Shown here piece after piece: positions 11,728 through 22,155 of a DNA stretch of 26,274 bases. Made by a program: the position numbers and the translations under genes. The notes beneath the pieces are model-generated. The model made no database searches, had not been told where the DNA came from, and saw only the letters and a program-made list of their open reading frames with translations. Origin of the DNA: a virus. The stretch is from the UHGV virus genome UHGV-0174150; one strand, 5' to 3'. The stretch's first letter is position 1. Each line of letters begins with the position of its first letter.

Positions 11728-12622
11728 CCTTTCGCAGTTGCCTGCACCGCAGATTGTGGATGTGCCGGACTTTGAGACGCTGCTTGCCGAACGCAAGGCA
11801 GAATTTGTGGCGCTTCATCCGAAAGATGAGCAGGAAGCAGTGATCCGCACGCTGGAACTGGAATCTGAACCCGCCACTAAATTGTTGCAGGAGAACGCTT
11901 ACCGTGAGTTGCTTCTGCGCCAGCGCATTAACGAAGCCGCGCAGGCGGTGATGGTGGCTTACGCGATGGGCGGCGATCTTGACCAGCTCGCTGCCAACTA
12001 CAACGTGACACGCCTGACGGTGACGCCTGCTGATAATGATGCTGTGCCGCCCGTTGCAGCTGTGATGGAAAGCGATGAAGCGTTACGCCTGCGTGTGCCT
12101 GCAGCCTTTGAGGGGCTTTCAGTTGCGGGGCCAACTGCAGCTTATGAATTTCATGCCCGAAGCGCCGACGGTCGGGTGGCGGATGCCAGTGCAACCAGTC
12201 CGGCACCTGCAGAGGTGGTGCTGACAGTCCTTAGCCGCGAAGGCGACGGAACAGCAGAAAAAGACCTGCTGGATGTGGTGGAAAAAGCCCTGAACAGTGA
12301 GAACGTCCGCCCGGTGGCTGACCGTCTGACGGTTCGCAGTGCAGAAATCATCCCGTACCGTGTGGAAGCCACCATTTTTCTCTATCCGGGACCGGAAGCG
12401 GAGCCGGTAATGGCAGCGGCAAAAGCCAGCCTGCAGAAGTACATCGCCAGTCAGACGCGGCTTGGTCGGGATATTCGCCGTAGTGCCATTTTTGCCGCGC
12501 TGCATGTTGAGGGGGTTCAACGTGTGGAGCTGGCTTCACCGCTGGCGGATGTGGTCCTGAACAAAACACAGGCCGCATCATGTACGCAGTGGAGCGTAAC
12601 CAACGGAGGAACGGATGAATAG
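11714..12622 (+). CDS. J: baseplate protein (P2 J-like)
   Basis: ATG at 11714 after GGAG; about 302 aa; terminates with TAG at 12620-12622, overlapping the I start. Confidence 0.85.
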   Translation: MAVIDLSQLPAPQIVDVPDFETLLAERKAEFVALHPKDEQEAVIRTLELESEPATKLLQENAYRELLLRQRINEAAQAVMVAYAMGGDLDQLAANYNVTRLTVTPADNDAVPPVAAVMESDEALRLRVPAAFEGLSVAGPTAAYEFHARSADGRVADASATSPAPAEVVLTVLSREGDGTAEKDLLDVVEKALNSENVRPVADRLTVRSAEIIPYRVEATIFLYPGPEAEPVMAAAKASLQKYIASQTRLGRDIRRSAIFAALHVEGVQRVELASPLADVVLNKTQAASCTQWSVTNGGTDE

Positions 12623-13220
12623 TCTGCTGCCACCGGGTTCAACTTCACTGGAGCGCCGACTGGCGCAAACCTGCAGCGGGATTTCTGATCTGCAGGTGCC
12701 GCTTCGTGACTTGTGGAATCCGGCAACCTGTCCGGTCAGTTTCCTGCCTTATCTCGCCTGGGCGTTCTCTGTGGATCGCTGGGACGAGGGCTGGACAGAA
12801 AGCGTCAAACGCCAGGTAGTGAAGGATGCTTTTTATATTCATCAGCACAAAGGAACCACCAGTGCCGTACGGCGGGTGGTGGAGCCGTTCGGCTTCCTGA
12901 TCCGCATTATTGAGTGGTGGCAGACCGGAGAAACACCGGGCACGTTTCGCCTGGATATCGGCGTGCAGGACCAGGGCATCACTGAAGATACCTATCTGGA
13001 ACTTGAGCGGCTGATAAGCGATGCCAAACCATGTAGCCGTCACATGATCGGCATGTCCATCAATCTGCAGACCAGCGGTCCGCATTGGGTGGGGGCCGCC
13101 AGCTATCTTGGCGAAGAAATCACGATCTATCCGTATATCAACGAAACAATTATTTCCGGCGGCACCGCGCATGAAGGCGGGGCGGTCCATGTTATTGACA
13201 CAATGAGAGTGAATCCATGA
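12615..13220 (+). CDS. I: baseplate protein (P2 I-like)
   Basis: 201 aa; synteny between J and H. Confidence 0.8.
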   Translation: MNSLLPPGSTSLERRLAQTCSGISDLQVPLRDLWNPATCPVSFLPYLAWAFSVDRWDEGWTESVKRQVVKDAFYIHQHKGTTSAVRRVVEPFGFLIRIIEWWQTGETPGTFRLDIGVQDQGITEDTYLELERLISDAKPCSRHMIGMSINLQTSGPHWVGAASYLGEEITIYPYINETIISGGTAHEGGAVHVIDTMRVNP

Positions 13221-15580
13221 GCACAAAATTTTATACCCTGCTGACGGATATTGGCGCGGCGAAACTTGCCAGCGCCGCCGCGATCGGTGTGCCGCTAAAA
13301 ATTACCCATATGGCGGTGGGCGATGGCGGCGGAGCATTGCCGACGCCGGACGCAAAGCAGACGGCACTGGTAAATGAGAAACGCCGGGCTGCGCTGAATA
13401 TGCTCTATATCGACCCGCAGAACAGCAGCCAGATTATTGCTGAACAGGTGATCCCTGAAAATGAGGGTGGTTGGTGGATACGTGAAGTGGGTCTGTTTGA
13501 TGAGTCCGGGGCATTGATTGCCGTGGGCAACTGCCCGGAAAGCTATAAGCCGCAACTGGCTGAAGGCAGCGGGCGTACCCAGACCGTGCGCATGGTGCTG
13601 ATTACCAGCAGCACGGACAATATCACCCTGAAAATCGACCCTGCTGTAGTGCTGGCAACCCGCAAGTATGTGGATGACAAGGCACTGGAGCTGAAGGTGT
13701 ACGTGGATGACCTGATGGCAAAACATCTTGCCGCGCCGGACCCGCATTCACAGTATGCACCCAAAGAAAGTCCAACGTTTACCGGAACCCCCAAAGCGCC
13801 AACGCCAGCGGCGGGGAATAATACCACGCAGCTTGCGACCACCGCGTTTGTACAGGCGGCACTGACGGCCCTTATTAATGGTGCGCCAGCCACGCTGGAC
13901 ACGCTGAAAGAAATAGCCGCAGCCATTAACAATGATCCGAATTTCAGTACCACCATTAACAATGTGCTGGCACTAAAAGCACCGTTGTCGAGTCCGGCAC
14001 TCACCGGAACGCCAACAGCCCCCACGGCGGCACAGTCGGTCAACAATACACAGATTGCCACTACGGCTTTTGTGAAATCGGCGATTGCGGCAATGGTGGG
14101 TTCTGCACCTGCGGCACTGGATACACTGAACGAACTGGCGGCGGCGCTGGGGAATGACCCGAACTTTGCCACGACAATGCTTAATGCACTGGCAGGTAAA
14201 CAACCGCTGGACAATACGCTGACTAATTTGAGTGGAAAGGATGTAGCTGGTCTTCTCGCATACCTTGGTATTTCAGCGCCAGGCGGCGCAGGGTCAGTTG
14301 GATATAAATTAAATGCAGAGAATACAGTCTCACGAACTGCATACGATAATTTTTCTGACCGAATTAATGCCGGAGACTTTGGTATTAAGGGTGATGGGAT
14401 AGCTGATAATGCTGCTGCGATAACCAAGGCATGTGCTGCATTGCAGAAACTGTACGAAATTGATGGAATCCGTCGCACATTGGTATTTACAGATGGGTCA
14501 TATCGCACATCGGCCACAATTGTTGTTCATGCAAATATGCTTATTCATTGCGAGGGGGGGGTTGTATTCCAGAATATCGGGGCAGTAAAAACCTTTGCAG
14601 CGGTGGAGCTTCAGGGCGGATCCAAGAAAAGCGTACTCGGCACTATGGACGGGTACGGTAGCGCCATCCTCATCAGGGGTAGCACTCATACTGTCGAATT
14701 TCAGACAATCAGTAACTGCGTAGATGGGGTGATTTTCAGGGCTGACAACAACTGGGCATCCACGAAAAGCAGCCTGGATAATGTGGTTCGTGGTGTTCAA
14801 ATTGGCAAATGTACTAACGCTATCGTGTTTGAGCAGAACGCTAATAATCTTGTGCAACAGGGCAATGAAGTTCGTGTCAACTTTGTGTCTGAAACCCCTA
14901 ACACACTGCTTTTCAGAAACTTCGATGGATTTGTCCACACAGAGGAATCTAACTGGGATAGTAACTTCGTAGAGCTGATAGCGAGTGACCCAATAACGCT
15001 GCCAGATTCATCTATGGCTAGGAACTCTACCCCCCATAGCGTATCAAACCTGACAATGGCGGTTAAATCATGGTGCGGAGGTTGGGTGCCCGATGCAGGC
15101 TCCATGTGCCTGATTAGAGGTGCGTTCAGTACCAGTACGTTCGAGTTCAATCTGGCCCAACGAGTAGGCTTAAACGAGGTTGTGGATGCCGTCGGCGTTA
15201 ATTCATTTGGTTCGTGTATTTTACGAAATACTCGTTATGAGAATTTAGGTAATTCAATATCTTATATCGGCGTTACTACTGGCGCTGAGTTCAATAGTGG
15301 TTTAGCCCTTTTCCGTAGTAAGTTCCGAGTCAGATTTACCGTGGTACCTCTGGCCGCAGGCCAAACGTACGGACTGTCTTTTAAGCATGTGCTGAGCCAG
15401 CGCTCAAATACAGGCAGGATGCGGATCGTACAATACTCGGATACAGCCAGGGGCAAGCTCTTGATTGAGGTTCGTGATGCGGGTACTGAGACGCAGGGCC
15501 TGGTGCGGGTGTGGTTCACAAATTTAACTCAGACAACTACGTCCACAATGGACGTAGAAATTATTTTTGAAGCTGAATAA
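13217..15580 (+). CDS. H: tail fibre / tailspike, mosaic: P2 H-like N-terminal half joined to an AT-rich C-terminal module with a pectate-lyase-superfamily-like motif
   Basis: N-terminal roughly 335 aa match P2 gpH including the NSPALTGTP...NDPNFATTM...AGKQP repeat region. After about nt 14220 composition turns AT-rich and the protein carries DFGIKGDGIADNAAAI, like the start of beta-helix depolymerase tailspikes. Confidence 0.85.
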   Translation: MSTKFYTLLTDIGAAKLASAAAIGVPLKITHMAVGDGGGALPTPDAKQTALVNEKRRAALNMLYIDPQNSSQIIAEQVIPENEGGWWIREVGLFDESGALIAVGNCPESYKPQLAEGSGRTQTVRMVLITSSTDNITLKIDPAVVLATRKYVDDKALELKVYVDDLMAKHLAAPDPHSQYAPKESPTFTGTPKAPTPAAGNNTTQLATTAFVQAALTALINGAPATLDTLKEIAAAINNDPNFSTTINNVLALKAPLSSPALTGTPTAPTAAQSVNNTQIATTAFVKSAIAAMVGSAPAALDTLNELAAALGNDPNFATTMLNALAGKQPLDNTLTNLSGKDVAGLLAYLGISAPGGAGSVGYKLNAENTVSRTAYDNFSDRINAGDFGIKGDGIADNAAAITKACAALQKLYEIDGIRRTLVFTDGSYRTSATIVVHANMLIHCEGGVVFQNIGAVKTFAAVELQGGSKKSVLGTMDGYGSAILIRGSTHTVEFQTISNCVDGVIFRADNNWASTKSSLDNVVRGVQIGKCTNAIVFEQNANNLVQQGNEVRVNFVSETPNTLLFRNFDGFVHTEESNWDSNFVELIASDPITLPDSSMARNSTPHSVSNLTMAVKSWCGGWVPDAGSMCLIRGAFSTSTFEFNLAQRVGLNEVVDAVGVNSFGSCILRNTRYENLGNSISYIGVTTGAEFNSGLALFRSKFRVRFTVVPLAAGQTYGLSFKHVLSQRSNTGRMRIVQYSDTARGKLLIEVRDAGTETQGLVRVWFTNLTQTTTSTMDVEIIFEAE
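13769..14215 (+). repeat. two tandem ~74-codon tail-fibre repeat units inside H
   Basis: SPTFTGTPKAPT...NDPNFSTTINNVLALKAPL directly followed by SPALTGTPTAPT...NDPNFATTMLNALAGKQPL; unit boundaries approximate. Confidence 0.55.
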
Positions 15581-15589
15581 GGGTCACCA

Positions 15590-15817
15590 ATGACACTGGA
15601 AGAATTAAAAGCCGACAAAGCTGAAACACTGGCAAAAGCGAATGCATTGACATCATACATTCAGTCAGATGATTTTCATCTGGCTGGGCATAGCCCAGCT
15701 GAGCAGCATTACATGAAAAAGCGGGAGGCGGCATTGCTGGAATATCATATGCAACTGACCCACCAAATCGCAGTGATTGAAAACCCATCCGGCGTGCCAC
15801 TCACTCTCACTGAATAA
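15590..15817 (+). CDS. hypothetical small protein (75 aa) at the position of the P2 tail-fibre assembly gene G; possibly a chaperone remnant
   Basis: Starts 9 nt after the H stop; AT-rich; much shorter than P2 G (about 175 aa); only vague resemblance to Tfa C-termini. Confidence 0.4.
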   Translation: MTLEELKADKAETLAKANALTSYIQSDDFHLAGHSPAEQHYMKKREAALLEYHMQLTHQIAVIENPSGVPLTLTE

Positions 15818-15863
15818 TGTGCGAACATTCGACCATTAATGGAACCTAACGGAGAAGTTTAAC

Positions 15864-16163
15864 GTGGATATATCCCCATTTCTTCATACTTGTGCCGCTG
15901 TACTTATCCAAGCGTTTTTTGGTTACTTTTTTGGTAGGTGGGGGTATGGCGGCATTATTGGCTGCGTGTGGTTTATTGCTCGTGAACAAACGCAGGCTGA
16001 ATATCGATGGATAGCCGAGTTCGGCCACGGAAAGCGGATCAACATGCCGTGGTGGGGAGGTTTCGATATCAGGGTGTGGAATGTTGGAAGCATGCTTGAT
16101 TTCCTGGTGCCGGTAATAGTCTGTTCCCTGGTGTATGCCTGCGTGGTGTATCGGCAGGCATAG
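15864..16163 (+). CDS. hypothetical Trp/Gly-rich small membrane protein (99 aa)
   Basis: GTG start with GGAGAAG 6 nt upstream; hydrophobic N- and C-terminal segments. A 126-codon antisense ORF (15846-16226) overlaps it fully and I judge that one less likely. Confidence 0.4.
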   Translation: MDISPFLHTCAAVLIQAFFGYFFGRWGYGGIIGCVWFIAREQTQAEYRWIAEFGHGKRINMPWWGGFDIRVWNVGSMLDFLVPVIVCSLVYACVVYRQA

Positions 16164-16247
16164 CGTCATGATAATCACCAATCGAACGTTTAAGAAAATG
16201 AAGAGATAACGGCTAACTGGCATCATTTCCGGTTTCTATTCAGGGGG

Positions 16248-16820
16248 ATGATCATGCTTATTGGATATGTACGCGTGTCAACAAATGACCAGAACACCGA
16301 TTTGCAACGCAATGCGCTGAACTGCGCGGGATGTGAGCGGATTTTTGAGGATAAAATCAGTGGCACTAAGTCCGACAGACCGGGGCTGAAAAAACTGCTC
16401 AGGACACTATCGGCAGGAGACACGCTGGTTGTCTGGAAGCTGGACAGGTTGGGGCGCAGTATGCGGCATCTTGTTACGCTGATAGAGGAGTTGCGCCAGC
16501 GTGGTGTGAATTTCCGAAGCCTGACTGACAGTATTGATACCAGTACCCCAATGGGCCGTTTCTTTTTTCATGTCATGGGTGCCCTGGCTGAAATGGAACG
16601 CGAACTGATAGTTGAACGTACCAGGGCAGGGCTGGCTGCAGCTCGTGCCAAAGGCAGAGTAGGTGGACGCCGTCCTAAGTTGACCACCGAACAGTGGGCA
16701 CAGATTGGGCGTTTACTCGAGGCCGGAGAATCAAGACAGCGTATTGCACTGATTTTTGATGTGGGTGTTTCCACAATTTATAGAAAATTTCCGGCAAATA
16801 AGAGTAATGAATCCCCCTGA
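16248..16820 (+). CDS. serine recombinase, Hin/Gin/Pin/Cin-family DNA invertase
   Basis: N-terminal LIGYVRVSTNDQ..DLQ catalytic motif, VVWKLDRLGRS, MGRFFFHVMGALAEMERELIVERT, and C-terminal HTH (GVSTIYRKF). Probable true start is the ATG at 16254 (MLIGY). Confidence 0.9.
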   Translation: MIMLIGYVRVSTNDQNTDLQRNALNCAGCERIFEDKISGTKSDRPGLKKLLRTLSAGDTLVVWKLDRLGRSMRHLVTLIEELRQRGVNFRSLTDSIDTSTPMGRFFFHVMGALAEMERELIVERTRAGLAAARAKGRVGGRRPKLTTEQWAQIGRLLEAGESRQRIALIFDVGVSTIYRKFPANKSNESP

Positions 16821-16868
16821 ATCAGCATTATTTTGATTATCCCTGCAAGCAGACAAATACCGTCATTT

Positions 16869-16886
16869 TGTGTGAATAACGGTACA
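16869..16886. promoter_or_regulatory. TGT-N12-ACA dyad upstream of FI; putative Ogr-dependent late promoter element
   Basis: TGTgtgaataacggtACA read directly, very similar to the P/O-region site (TGTGTG...CGGTACA). Centre about 85 bp upstream of the FI ATG, followed by a CAGGAGG Shine-Dalgarno. Confidence 0.45.
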
Positions 16887-16962
16887 ACTGCGCTTAGCTG
16901 TTTGTCAGGCACAATCACTTCAACATAGGGCGAAGCCTAATCCAATCAGGAGGTTCGCCACT

Positions 16963-18135
16963 ATGGCTCAGGATTACCACCACGGGGTGCGCGTTGTTGA
17001 AGTCAACGAAGGCACCCGATCCATTACCACGGTGAGCACCGCCATCGTGGGCATGGTCTGCACGGGCGATGATGCCGATGCAAAAATGTTTCCTCTTAAC
17101 AAACCTGTGCTGATCACTGATGTGCTGACTGCCAGCGGTAAAGCGGGTGAGTCCGGCACGCTGGCCCGTTCGCTGGATGCCATCGCTGACCAGGCAAAAC
17201 CCGTGACCGTTGTTGTGCGTGTGCCGCAGGGTGAAACGGAAGAAGAAACCACGACCAATATCATCGGCGCAGTGACTGCTGAAGGTAAAAAAACAGGCAT
17301 GAAAGCTCTGTTATCTGCCCAGTCACAGCTCGGCGTTAAACCGCGCATTCTCGGCGTGCCAGGTCACGATAACAAAGCCGTTGCGACTGAGTTGCTGAGC
17401 GTGGCGCAAAGCCTGCGTGGGTTTGCTTACCTGTCAGCGTATGGCTGCAAGACGGTACAGGAGGCGATCACTTACCGTGAAAACTTCAGCCAGCGCGAAG
17501 GAATGCTGATCTGGCCCGACTTTACTGGCTGGGACACGGTGCTGAATGCCGAAGCAACGGCATATGCCACCGCCCGTGCACTTGGTCTGCGTGCCAAAAT
17601 TGATGAGCAGACCGGGTGGCACAAAAGCCTGTCCAACGTGGGCGTGAACGGTGTCACCGGAATTTCTGCAGATGTGTTCTGGGATCTGCAGGACCCGGCA
17701 ACCGATGCAGGTCTGCTGAACCAGAACGACGTCACCACGCTTGTGCGTAAAGACGGTTTCCGCTTCTGGGGTTCCCGCTGTCTGAGCGATGATCCGCTTT
17801 TTGCCTTCGAAAACTACACCCGCACGGCGCAGGTGCTGACGGACACAATGGCAGAAGCACACATGTGGGCGGTGGATAAACCGCTTAACCCGTCGCTGGC
17901 CCGCGACATTATCGAAGGTATCCGCGCCAAAATACGCAGCCTGGTCAGTCAGGGCTATCTCATTGGTGGTGATTGCTGGCTGGATGAGTCGGTGAACGAC
18001 AAAGACACGCTGAAAGCCGGAAAACTCACCATCGACTATGACTACACGCCAGTGCCGCCACTTGAAAATCTGATGCTGCGCCAGCGCATCACCGATCAGT
18101 ACCTGGTGAATTTTGCCAGCCAGGTCAGCGCGTAA
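16963..18135 (+). CDS. FI: contractile tail sheath protein (P2 FI-like)
   Basis: 390 aa; strong similarity to P2 gpFI along its length (DYHHGV...EGTR...[10 protein letters not shown]...[12 protein letters not shown]), from memory. Confidence 0.92.
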
Positions 18136-19017: not shown

Positions 19018-19151
19018 CGGTTGACGATCTGGTGGCAGATATCGCCACCATTTTTCACTGGCCGCCATCCGTTACTGACGTTATGCCGCTGACCGAAGTG
19101 CTGGAATGGCGGTATAAAGCGATTCAGAGAAGCGGGGCCAACGATGAGTGA
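18715..19151 (+). CDS. E+E': E+E' fusion produced by programmed -1 frameshift at TTTTTTG (18972-18978)
   Basis: The -1 frame after the slippery site is open to TGA at 19149-19151, encoding ...VDDLVADIATIFHWPPS...SGANDE and overlapping the T start. Same arrangement as P2 E/E' and lambda G/GT. Confidence 0.6.
18972..18978 (+). other. slippery heptanucleotide T_TTT_TTG, -1 ribosomal frameshift site for E+E'
   Basis: Read directly in the E frame as ACT TTT TTG. Confidence 0.6.
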
Positions 19152-22100
19152 TAACAACCTGCGTCTGCAGGTCATTCTTAATGCGGTTGACAAGCTCACC
19201 CGCCCATTTCGATCTGCGCAGGCCAGTTCAAGAGAACTGGCTGCTGCTGTCAAAAAATCCCGCGATGCAATAAAGCAGCTTGATCAGGCCGGGAGCAGTC
19301 TGGACAGCTTCCGAAAGCTGCAGGCAGAAAATCAGAAATTAGGCGACAGGCTGAACTATGCCCGCCAGCGTGCAAATTTGCTCAGTCAGGAACTGGGAGC
19401 GATGGGGCCGCCTTCGCAACGTCAGGTTGTTGCTCTGGGCCGTCAACGGCTGGCTGTTCAGCGCCTGGAAGAACGCCAGAAAAAGCTGCAGCAGCAGACG
19501 GCGCTTGTGCGTGCTGAACTGTACCGGGCGGGAATTTCTGCGAAAGACGATGCGGGAGCAACTGCCCGTTTAGCCCGTGAAACATCACGTTATAACCAGG
19601 AACTTTCGAAACAGGAGGCGCGGCTGAAGCGACTGGGGGAAGCTCAGCGCAGGATGAATGCAGCGCGTGTCAGTTATGCCCGTTCGCTGGAGGTGCGTGA
19701 TCGTATTGCAGGTGCCGGAGCCACCACCACGGCTGCAGGGCTGGCAATGGGCGCACCAGTGATGGCGGCAGTAAAAAGCTATACCAGCATGGAAGATGCC
19801 ATGAAAGGTGTGGCAAAGCAGGTCAATGGTCTGCGTGACGATAATGGCAACCGCACTGCACGTTTTTATGAAATGCAGGATGCCATCAAGGCTGCCAGCG
19901 AACAGTTGCCGATGGAAAACGGTGCGGTGGATTTCGCTGCACTGGTTGAAGGTGGTGCGCGCATGAACGTCGCAAACCCTGACGACAGTTGGGAAGATCA
20001 GAAACGTGACCTGCTGGCCTTCGCCAGTACGGCAGCAAAGGCGGCAACAGCCTTTGAGCTGCCAGCGGATGAACTGTCAGAAAGTCTGGGGAAAATCGCC
20101 CAGCTCTACAAAATCCCCACCCGCAATATTGAACAGCTCGGTGATGCGCTGAACTATCTGGATGATAACGCCATGTCGAAAGGGGCAGACATCATTGATG
20201 TGATGCAACGTCTGGGCGGTGTGGCTGACCGTCTGGATTATCGTAAAGCGGCGGCGCTGGGTTCCACCTTCCTGACACTGGGCGCTGCGCCAGAGGTTGC
20301 AGCCAGTGCAGCAAACGCGATGGTGCGTGAATTGTCCATTGCCACCATGCAAAGCAAAAGTTTCTTTGAAGGGATGAATCTGCTGAAACTCAATCCTGAA
20401 GTGATTGAAAAGCAGATGACGAAGGATGCGATGGGAACCATCCAGCGCGTGCTGGAGAAGGTAAACGCGCTGCCGCAGGACAAGCGCCTGTCTGCCATGA
20501 CTATGTTGTTTGGTAAAGAGTTTGGCGATGACGCGGCGAAACTGGCAAACAACCTGCCGGAACTGCAGCGTCAGTTAAAACTGACAGCGGGCAATGATGC
20601 GCTCGGCTCCATGCAGAAAGAATCCGACATTAACAAGGATTCACTTTCTGCGCAGTGGTTGCTGGTCAAAACCGGAGCGCAGAACACCTTCAGCAGCCTG
20701 GGCGAAACGCTGCGCCAGCCGCTGATGGATATTCTGTACACGGTGAAAAGCGTCACGGGGGCGTTGCGTCGCTGGGTGGAAGCTAACCCGGAACTGACAG
20801 GCACACTGATGAAAGCATCGGCTGTTGTGGCTGCGGTTACCGTCGGCCTCGGCACCTTAGCGGTGGCGCTGGCTGCAGTGCTGGGGCCGCTGGCAGTGAT
20901 CCGTCTGGGATTCTCTGTGTTGGGTATCAAAACGTTATCTTCCGTTACGGCAGCAGTAACTCGAACCAGCAGCGCGTTGTCCTGGCTGGCTGGCGCGCCA
21001 CTGGCACTGCTGCGACGCGGGCTTGCTTCATCGGGCAACGCCGCAGGTTTACTTACTGCGCCGTTGTCGTCATAGCGCCGCACGGCATCACTCACGGGAA
21101 ATGTCCTGAAAACTCTAGCAGGAGCGCCGGTTGCACTTTTGCGGTCTGGATTATCCGGTTTACGTGCTGTTGCTGTGATGTTTATGAATCCTCTGGCGAT
21201 GCTGCGCGTTGCCCTGTATGCCATATCTGGTCTGTTAGGTGCTCTGCTCAGTCCGATAGGTCTTGTGGTTACTGCACTGGCGGGCGTGGCGCTGGTTGTC
21301 TGGAAATACTGGCAACCCATCACCGCATTTCTCGGTGGCGTGGTGGAAGGATTCAAAGCGGCGGCAGGTCCCATCAGTGCAGCGTTCGAACCGCTTAAGC
21401 CCGTGTTCCAGTGGATTGGCGACAAAGTGCAGGCGCTGTGGGGCTGGTTTACTGATCTGCTGACGCCCGTTAAGTCGACCTCTGCCGAACTGCAGAGCGC
21501 AGCGGCCATGGGGCGACGATTCGGGGAGGCACTGGCAGAAGGGCTGAATATGGTCATGCATCCGCTGGACTCCCTGAAATCCGGCGTTTCCTGGTTGCTG
21601 GAGAAACTCGGCATTGTCAGTAAAGAGGCTGCAAAGGCGAAACTGCCGGAAAGCGTGACGCGTCAGCAACCTGCGACGGTGAATGCAGACGGTAAAGTGA
21701 TGATGCCATCGGGTGGTTTTCCGTCATGGGGATATGGCTTTGCGGGGATGTATGACAGCGGCGGCTATATCCCGCGCGGGCAGTTCGGCATTGTCGGTGA
21801 AAACGGGCCGGAAATTGTCAACGGTCCGGCAAACGTGACCAGCCGGAGAAATACCGCTGCACTGGCTGCGGTTGTCGCCGGAATGATGGGAGTTGCTGCC
21901 GCGCCAGCAGAGCTTCCACCGTTGCATCCTTTGGCGCTTCCCGCGAAAGGCGGTGAAGCGATGGTGAGTCGCGTAGCTGCTGTGCCGCCCGTTCACCGGA
22001 TTGAGGCACCGACGCAGATCATCATCCAGACGCAGCCAGGACAAAGTGCGCAGGATATTGCGCGGGAGGTGGCACGCCAGCTTGATGAACGTGAACGCAG

Positions 22101-22155
22101 GCTGAAGGCAAAAGCCAGGAGTAACTACAGCGATCAGGGGGGATACGACGCATGA
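19144..22155 (+). pseudogene. T: tail tape-measure protein (P2 T-like), single frame interrupted by one in-frame TAG at 21073-21075
   Basis: ORFs 19144-21075 and 21139-22155 are in the same frame; the 63 nt between them are open, so the only interruption is the TAG. Read-through gives ...LLTAPLSS*RRTASLTGNVLKTLAGAPVALL..., continuous Ala/Leu-rich tape-measure sequence. Confidence 0.85.

Follow-up and report, generated by a model that had tools for sequence, protein, structure and literature searches.

The window analysed here, a stretch of 26,274 nucleotides from a virus genome, carries a serine invertase gene beside a tail fibre gene. It is best explained as a Din-type tail-fibre inversion locus whose content was exchanged by recombinase at the cores of the crossover sites, leaving a tailspike locked ON and the invertase effectively orphaned; we would give this reading a probability of about two in three. 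Sequence comparison indicates that the segment was replaced base-exactly at both cores, and that an identical cassette occupies nine contexts. The invertase is intact but dispensable, and the ON orientation alone has been seen. Din-type invertases are the presumed catalysts of the exchange.

The window is the late region of an E. coli P2-like (Peduoviridae) prophage. A megablast search gave the Escherichia phages Cartapus and 500465-1 and several Klebsiella Peduoviridae as the nearest sequenced phages, and NCBI records list both the H protein and the small protein orf99 under E. coli. The Peduoviridae tail-module order V-W-J-I-H ... FI-FII-E-T-U-D was observed, with Pfam matches for I, H and FI. 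The annotation of a near-identical contig, L003, names GpR, S, V, W, J, I, fibre, sheath, tube, tail assembly chaperone (Phage_TAC_7) and tape measure. Gene I lies at 12615-13220 next to H (13217-15580, + strand), and FI, encoding the sheath, lies at 16963-18135, 3' of the invertase gene. The first-pass annotation had described H as a single complete gene, and this was confirmed: its 787 residues combine a P2-type N-terminus with a pectate-lyase-like C-terminus.

The invertase gene (16248..16820, + strand) encodes a Gin/Pin-type serine DNA invertase of 190 residues. The probable start is at 16254, and most relatives are annotated from the ATG at this position (188 aa). Its product is a small serine recombinase with Pfam matches to Resolvase (E=2.3e-53) and HTH_7 (E=1.5e-15), and is matched by PHROG 125, 'DNA invertase', at E=1.4e-101. 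The Mu Gin structures 3UJ3/4M6F align with it over residues 1-184 (E=8e-93), the catalytic serine is kept in the motif VRVSTNDQ, and Met114 is the wild type residue and not the hyperactive V. By these alignments the protein is assigned to the Gin/Cin/Pin/Hin family. The end-to-end alignment with Gin and the catalytic serine also uphold the earlier claim of an intact enzyme, as the protein is not a fragment. The region 16178-17300, which includes the invertase gene, has 99.0% nucleotide identity with Cartapus and 96.8-99.0% across Cartapus and 500465-1, and the first 240 nt of the gene, in the 5' part of which Din-family invertase genes have a Fis-dependent recombinational enhancer, have 98.3% identity with Cartapus.

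Cartapus, a prophage of E. coli LF82, and 500465-1 provide the locus as it would have been before the exchange. Their flanks are 96-99% identical to those of the window, up to 14269 and from 16178, and the sequences between are unrelated. The constant N-terminal part of H (aa 1-350, 13217..14266, + strand; Pfam Phage_tail_fib, E=2.3e-64) lies outside the cassette and keeps 96-97% identity with both phages until position 14269. At the position where the window has a 1918-bp one-way tailspike cassette, both phages have the canonical two-way cassette H-Cterm/tfa/tfa'/Cterm' (about 1.5-1.8 kb for Cterm-tfa-tfa'-Cterm'), followed by the invertase. E. coli genomes contain the canonical Cartapus cassette in either orientation, whereas the cassette of the window has been found ON only. 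At each of the two crossover sites, homology ends at the centre. Thus the first of the alternatives proposed earlier, that a tailspike module took the place of the invertible segment, is borne out by relatives which hold the canonical cassette at that place. Two corrections are needed: hybrid sites persist, and the replacement was not random, as it ends on the cleavage dinucleotides in nine contexts. The proposal also described the recombinase as an intact orphan. Replacement and intactness both stand, while the orphan status is deduced from the absence of inversion in 14 contigs, the absence of inverted-state proteins and the presence of two decayed invertases.

The first-pass annotation had found no convincing pair of crossover sites. 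This proved to be wrong, as a pair in inverted orientation could be placed by alignment with relatives that have a working cassette. The left hybrid site (14253-14278) lies inside H and consists of the outer half TTCTCGCATACC, the core TT (14265-14266) and a foreign inner half, GGTATTTCAGCG. It is homologous to the functional site of the relatives, TTCTCGCATACC TT GGTTTGGGAGAA; in Cartapus and 500465-1 the site inside H reads TTCTC(G/A)CATACC TT GGTTTGGGAGAA. The right hybrid site (16173-16198), read on the top strand, consists of a foreign inner half, AATCACCAATCG, the core AA (16185-16186) and the outer half CGTTTAAGAAAA. It holds the same position as the Cartapus/500465-1 site beside the invertase, TTCTCCCAAACC AA CGTTTA(A/T)GAAAA. 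Compared with the relatives, the hybrid sites have retained the outer halves and the 2-bp core and have had their inner halves swapped for foreign sequence. The outer half-sites of Cartapus and 500465-1 are the same as those of the window or one base off, and the TT core is the same.

The sites were scored with a position matrix built from 20 half-sites, for which canonical halves give 13-18 bits. The outer and inner halves scored 14.1 and 1.0 bits for the left site and 13.1 and -3.1 bits for the right site, and these were the best and second-best full-site scores in the 26-kb window. The distal TTCTC motif is absent from both inner halves. The matrix scan gave no further candidate site in the window, a full canonical 26-bp site is absent from all of it even with up to 3 mismatches, and a generic inverted-repeat search of 13000-17000 returned short chance pairs only. 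The pair was thus detected only through comparison with relatives. The two motifs suggested earlier were rejected because they are not at positions homologous to the crossover sites of the relatives: GGTTTCTATTCA (16231-16242) lies in the invertase leader, 33 nt past the true right site, and GTAAAC near 14190 lies about 65 nt 5' of the true left site.

The cassette (14267..16184, + strand) comprises the 1918 bp between the cores and contains the H C-terminus, orf75 and orf99, all on the + strand. Its GC content is 43-50% against 55-59% for the flanks. The segment has no tfa (tail-fibre assembly) homologue, no long inverted repeat and no opposed second fibre tip; the earlier statement that the locus lacks an inverted duplicate fibre/chaperone cassette therefore holds. 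Promoter and terminator scans near the cassette end were at chance level.

The C-terminal part of H (aa 351-787, 14267..15580, + strand) has a weak Pfam Pect-lyase match and PHROG tailspike matches. Its homologues, of 37-68% identity, are attached to P22-type head-binding, T7-tail, TSP1/Gp66 and P2-type N-termini. One of them is recorded as 'phage tailspike protein [E. coli]'. The homology to these relatives begins at H aa 346-388, that is, at the crossover site. A sequence search of the PDB with this part gave no match and only the fold search was informative. The AlphaFold model (pLDDT 89.6) is an all-beta, repetitive beta-helix, for which the best PDB folds found by Foldseek were the Sf6, HK620 and Dettilon tailspikes, with probability 1.0 and a TM score of only about 0.3. 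All three are O-antigen tailspikes. The predicted fold and the homologues on other anchor domains mark the H C-terminus as a beta-helix tailspike receptor-binding domain.

The first of the small genes, orf75 (15590..15817, + strand), is called as a gene in every context in which the cassette occurs and has no match in Pfam, PHROGs, NCBIfam or PADLOC. It was considered as a counterpart of the phage 21 gene at the same position, with which it has no similarity. The second, orf99 (15864..16163, + strand), encodes a small membrane-like protein which belongs to phrog_1443 (E=1.9e-41) and has no Pfam, NCBIfam or PADLOC match. Phage 21, the Uetakevirus phiv142-3 and an Enterobacter P2-like prophage that lacks an invertase, L027, each have an orf99 homologue directly 3' of a receptor-binding gene. 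Family members lie at L014:4001-4294, L015:3986-4285 and L027:5001-5303, and the phage 21 protein is annotated with 2 TM segments. In every case the family member comes right after the receptor-binding gene, which encodes the side tail fibre in phage 21, the tail fibre/tailspike in the Uetakevirus and a fibre with a Peptidase_S74 domain in the P2-like prophage. From its neighbours the orf99 family looks like a travelling companion of receptor-binding modules, and a role in lysogenic conversion or exclusion would be a guess from gene position.

The L027 prophage has a strong outer half-site and core in its H gene (L027:3007-3032), TTCTCCAAAACC TT GGTCTTTCAGAG. The inner half there matches the left inner half of the window at 10 of 12 positions despite a different fibre tip, and nothing site-like was found downstream of the orf99 homologue in L027. 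One-way cassettes may have a common GGTnTTTCAG left end.

Exact-protein look-ups of orf99, orf75 and fibre variants gave 14 distinct contigs, which represent nine site contexts. Two are the window type and its 97% variant, and three are other P2-like lineages (L004, L007 and L010). Of the remaining four, L008 is a myovirus-type prophage beside the host genes priC-mscK, L009 is a Mu-like baseplate locus and L016 is a contig of 1952 nt; in L017 the prophage has a fibre N-terminus of 96 aa, with dinI and an integrase gene after it. The cassette is exactly 1918 bp long in every complete locus. In the seven loci that were fully compared it is 99.7-100% identical and ungapped over 1918 bp, with left flanks that are 1-63% identical and invertase genes that are 60-75% identical or unalignable. 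L009 and the window have only 14265-16191 in common, at 99.9% identity.

The cassette ends have the same form in all contexts, namely a context-specific outer half followed by TT-GGTATTTCAGCG at the left, and AATCACCAATCG-AA followed by a context-specific outer half at the right. The outer halves vary right to the base adjoining the core. Left ends are ...ACC|TT in most contexts and ...ATA|TT in L009, and right ends are AA|CG, AA|CC or AA|GG; the L009 junctions are TCCTAGCAAATA|TT and AA|CCTTTTATGGAT. Since the outer bases differ up to the core, both breakpoints map to the core dinucleotide.

Of the collections searched, draft E. coli assemblies and Logan/ENA contigs alone contained the cassette. 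It was not found in complete E. coli genomes, GTDB species representatives, IMG/VR, JGI metagenomes or PLSDB plasmids, and these cassette-free collections gave neither a donor nor host-range information. GenBank phages contained nothing of the cassette beyond the orf99 family. No donor with non-site flanks and no reciprocal product were seen in the collections searched.

A non-coding right end and a coding left end which fall on the same nucleotides in nine backgrounds point to the 2-bp staggered cut of a serine invertase. The proposed mechanism is a natural recombinase-mediated cassette exchange, in which serine-invertase strand exchange would occur at the 2-bp cores of both sites. The canonical site of the recipient would pair with a hybrid or quasi site of the donor, once per end; recipient and donor might be, for example, two prophages of one cell, or a prophage and an incoming phage. 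Only the in-frame ON insertions would then survive phage selection. After such an exchange each site would have one good outer half and one poor inner half, and the hybrid x hybrid pairing needed for local inversion would be much rarer than hybrid x canonical pairing. Inversion between two weak sites would be very rare, so the tailspike would be effectively locked ON and the neighbouring invertase would have no local job.

It is established that Cin uses secondary crossover sites on rare occasions (PMC4270481). According to Iida and Hiestand-Nauer (1987), as cited in PMC4134206, two partner sites need matching central dinucleotides. The core is TT in 9/9 contexts, which is consistent with this rule. 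Intermolecular reactions are strongly disfavoured by wild-type invertases, and this counts against the exchange model. There is also a tension within it: hybrid sites must be able to recombine if at least eight precise transfers took place recently, yet inversion has not been seen; strong selection for rare events has to be assumed. A broader reading, on which we are evenly divided, is that invertase sites form a natural docking system by which a host-range cassette is passed base-exactly between unrelated prophages with different invertases. If this were true, the weak inner halves brought in by the cassette would make each insertion quasi-irreversible, and invertases would drive the horizontal evolution of host range besides switching it.

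Two of the 14 cassette-bearing contigs have lost the invertase. The L004 gene (L004:6390-6632) is cut off after about 67 residues, and the L012 gene (L012:889-1227) is frameshifted by a 1-nt insertion at the equivalent of window position 16560. The cassette is intact and ON in both, and the invertase is therefore dispensable. In the window, the enzyme is probably still intact because the event was recent, possibly also because it can act in trans on other prophages. The latter idea, that the gene is kept by action on canonical segments of other prophages in the same cell, is compatible with the exchange model and in line with the second alternative proposed earlier, action in trans on other loci; we rate it as less likely than not. 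Trans action is documented, as EC958 Phi4 inverts though its own invertase is truncated (PMC4134206). Also in its favour, the invertase cluster has 2365 near-identical members in E. coli, Klebsiella, Salmonella and Cronobacter, and about 1,700 of the 5,426 complete E. coli genomes contain canonical junction fragments of the Cartapus fibre type. The two losses argue against maintenance by this route, as does the lack of an evident benefit to the phage.

The alternative of a still-working switch, in which the invertase flips 14267-16184 appreciably and gives ON/OFF phase variation of the tailspike, appears distinctly improbable. The OFF state would be H(1-350) followed by 112 nonsense residues, and expression of orf75 and orf99 might change. 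In its favour, the sites are inverted relative to each other, their TT cores match, their outer halves are good, and the invertase is intact and 98-99% identical to one with a flipping cassette. Sites with one weak half can function (PMC4134206, Table 3), the 3' site of EC958 Phi2, GAGAGATAAACG, being a functional site with one poor half from the same source; thus the weak inner halves are no proof of inactivity. The lack of the distal TTCTC from both inner halves nevertheless counts against this alternative.

The orientation counts also speak against a working switch. All 14 contigs, and all nine contexts, were ON and none was inverted, and in at least ten distinct contigs the assembly is unbroken across both junctions. 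As a positive control, native and in-silico inverted left junctions of the Cartapus cassette were compared with complete E. coli genomes, giving 22 native and 29 inverted genomes (29/51 inverted), each with examples at 100% identity. The counts for the window cassette come from assemblies, many of them clonally related. Fisher's exact test of 22:29 gave p=1e-4 against 14:0 contigs, which are partly clonal, and p=2e-3 against 9:0 contexts. In the canonical system, strains N17 and N24 of one series differ in orientation at nearly identical chromosomal coordinates, which points to active flipping.

Inversion of the segment would join H aa 1-350 in frame to an antisense open frame (15846..16184, - strand), which stays open for 112 codons in phase with H. 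This would fit a switch, but the frame is antisense to, and codon-aligned with, the real gene orf99. Codon alignment antisense to a real gene is the usual origin of shadow ORFs, and the frame is probably one of these, without fibre character. A minus-strand ORF of 126 codons (15846-16226) crosses the right site and is occasionally called as a gene, as in L016 (P0001, 125 aa).

The inverted state was also sought directly. The predicted inverted junctions are ...GCATACCTT|CGATTGGTGATT... and ...CGCTGAAATACC|AACGTTTAAGAAAA, and the corresponding k-mers are GCATACCTTCGATTGGTGATTATC and GCGCTGAAATACCAACGTTTAAGAAAA. The 112-aa inverted-state tail had a single match among 5.8 billion protein clusters, a native-orientation ORF, and no fusion to a fibre N-terminus was returned. 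None of seven predicted inverted-state proteins was found by exact look-up, whereas H, orf99 and the invertase were; no H' fusion protein was found. Two proteins were considered as inverted products and rejected. P0001, from the 1952-nt contig, is a native-orientation shadow ORF in another context, and P0050 (444 aa, in the H cluster) is an N-terminal fragment in the native state. Recall of the protein index was imperfect, as the tailspike query missed both the 787-aa H cluster and the 600-aa L008 fibre, each of which is in the collection, and its negatives therefore carry limited weight.

Ordinary homologous or illegitimate recombination, in which the coincidence with the sites would reflect a fibre domain boundary and the invertase would be a decaying relic, is very hard to credit: the tailspike module does begin near H aa 346-388 on many unrelated anchors, as at a natural domain boundary, tailspike receptor-binding domains do move horizontally at such boundaries (PMC10408124) and some of the invertases are decayed, but the right end, which lies in non-coding sequence 21 nt beyond the stop of orf99, is equally exact, the same nucleotide is used at both ends in nine contexts, and some contexts, e.g. 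L009, have just the 2-bp core in common with others. Ends on the same nucleotide with sharing of the core only are explained neither by selection on protein function nor by microhomology. On the sequences compared, homologous recombination, microhomology and protein selection cannot explain base-exact ends in nine backgrounds.

The locus is close to several known systems. It resembles the Mu G segment with Gin, the P1 C segment with Cin and the e14 P segment with Pin in that a Gin-like invertase gene adjoins the segment, a 26-bp site lies in the fibre gene at the constant/variable boundary with a second, inverted site beside the invertase, and the reading frame is phased across a 2-bp core. 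Unlike these segments, the window has one fibre tip, the tailspike, with no chaperones and no opposed alternative set, its inner half-sites are non-canonical, and no inverted form was observed. Because it has neither an opposed alternative set nor a second orientation, the locus, as judged from its sequence, does not belong to the class of invertible host-range switches.

A further parallel is the quasi-site recombination of Cin described by Iida, Hiestand-Nauer and Arber, which is rare and joins a canonical site to a poor one with a common central dinucleotide. As described in PMC4270481 and in PMC4134206 (its references 50 and 51), such recombination creates new gene fusions. The window differs in that both ends were exchanged, giving a clean cassette swap, and, unlike a laboratory inversion or deletion, the product has spread to at least nine prophage contexts on a natural population scale. 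Swapping of the C-terminal receptor-binding domain of tailspikes across phage genera, with conservation of the N-terminal anchor, has been reported (PMC10408124). The P2 fibre/Z-fun locus has likewise been described as a hotspot for swapping of receptor-binding proteins, often with invertases (bioRxiv 10.1101/2024.10.15.618418). Those reports make no tie to the cleavage dinucleotide, whereas the breakpoints here fall base-exactly on the cores. That fibre genes are mosaic at crossover sites is already known from the work of Sandmeier and of Iida and Arber (cited in PMC4134206 and PMC4270481). In the papers that could be searched, no report was found of a one-way tailspike cassette that ends base-exactly on the cores and circulates nearly unchanged among P2-like, Mu-like and other prophages.

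Tail-fibre invertases are textbook flip-flop switches. The present evidence points to a second, evolutionary role, in which the crossover sites appear to be exact seams for the swapping of whole receptor-binding cassettes between unrelated prophages. Such a role would account mechanistically for the mosaicism long noted in fibre genes at these sites and would explain the presence of a podovirus-style tailspike on P2-like and Mu-like tails. It predicts that a given cassette can be accepted by prophages with matching core dinucleotides, and suggests a natural template for engineering the host range of phages or tailocins. For annotation, finding an intact invertase beside a fibre gene is not enough to conclude that the switch works.

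One further feature of the window lies outside the cassette. The tape-measure gene T (19144-22155) contains an in-frame TAG at 21073-21075, which splits its 1003 codons into ORFs of 643 and 338 codons and indicates either a defective prophage or a local sequence error. The TAG is one of five substitutions within 52 nt (21072-21123) relative to L003, which is otherwise 99.95% identical, and the codon at this position is TTG in five related loci (L003, L005, L006, L011 and L013).
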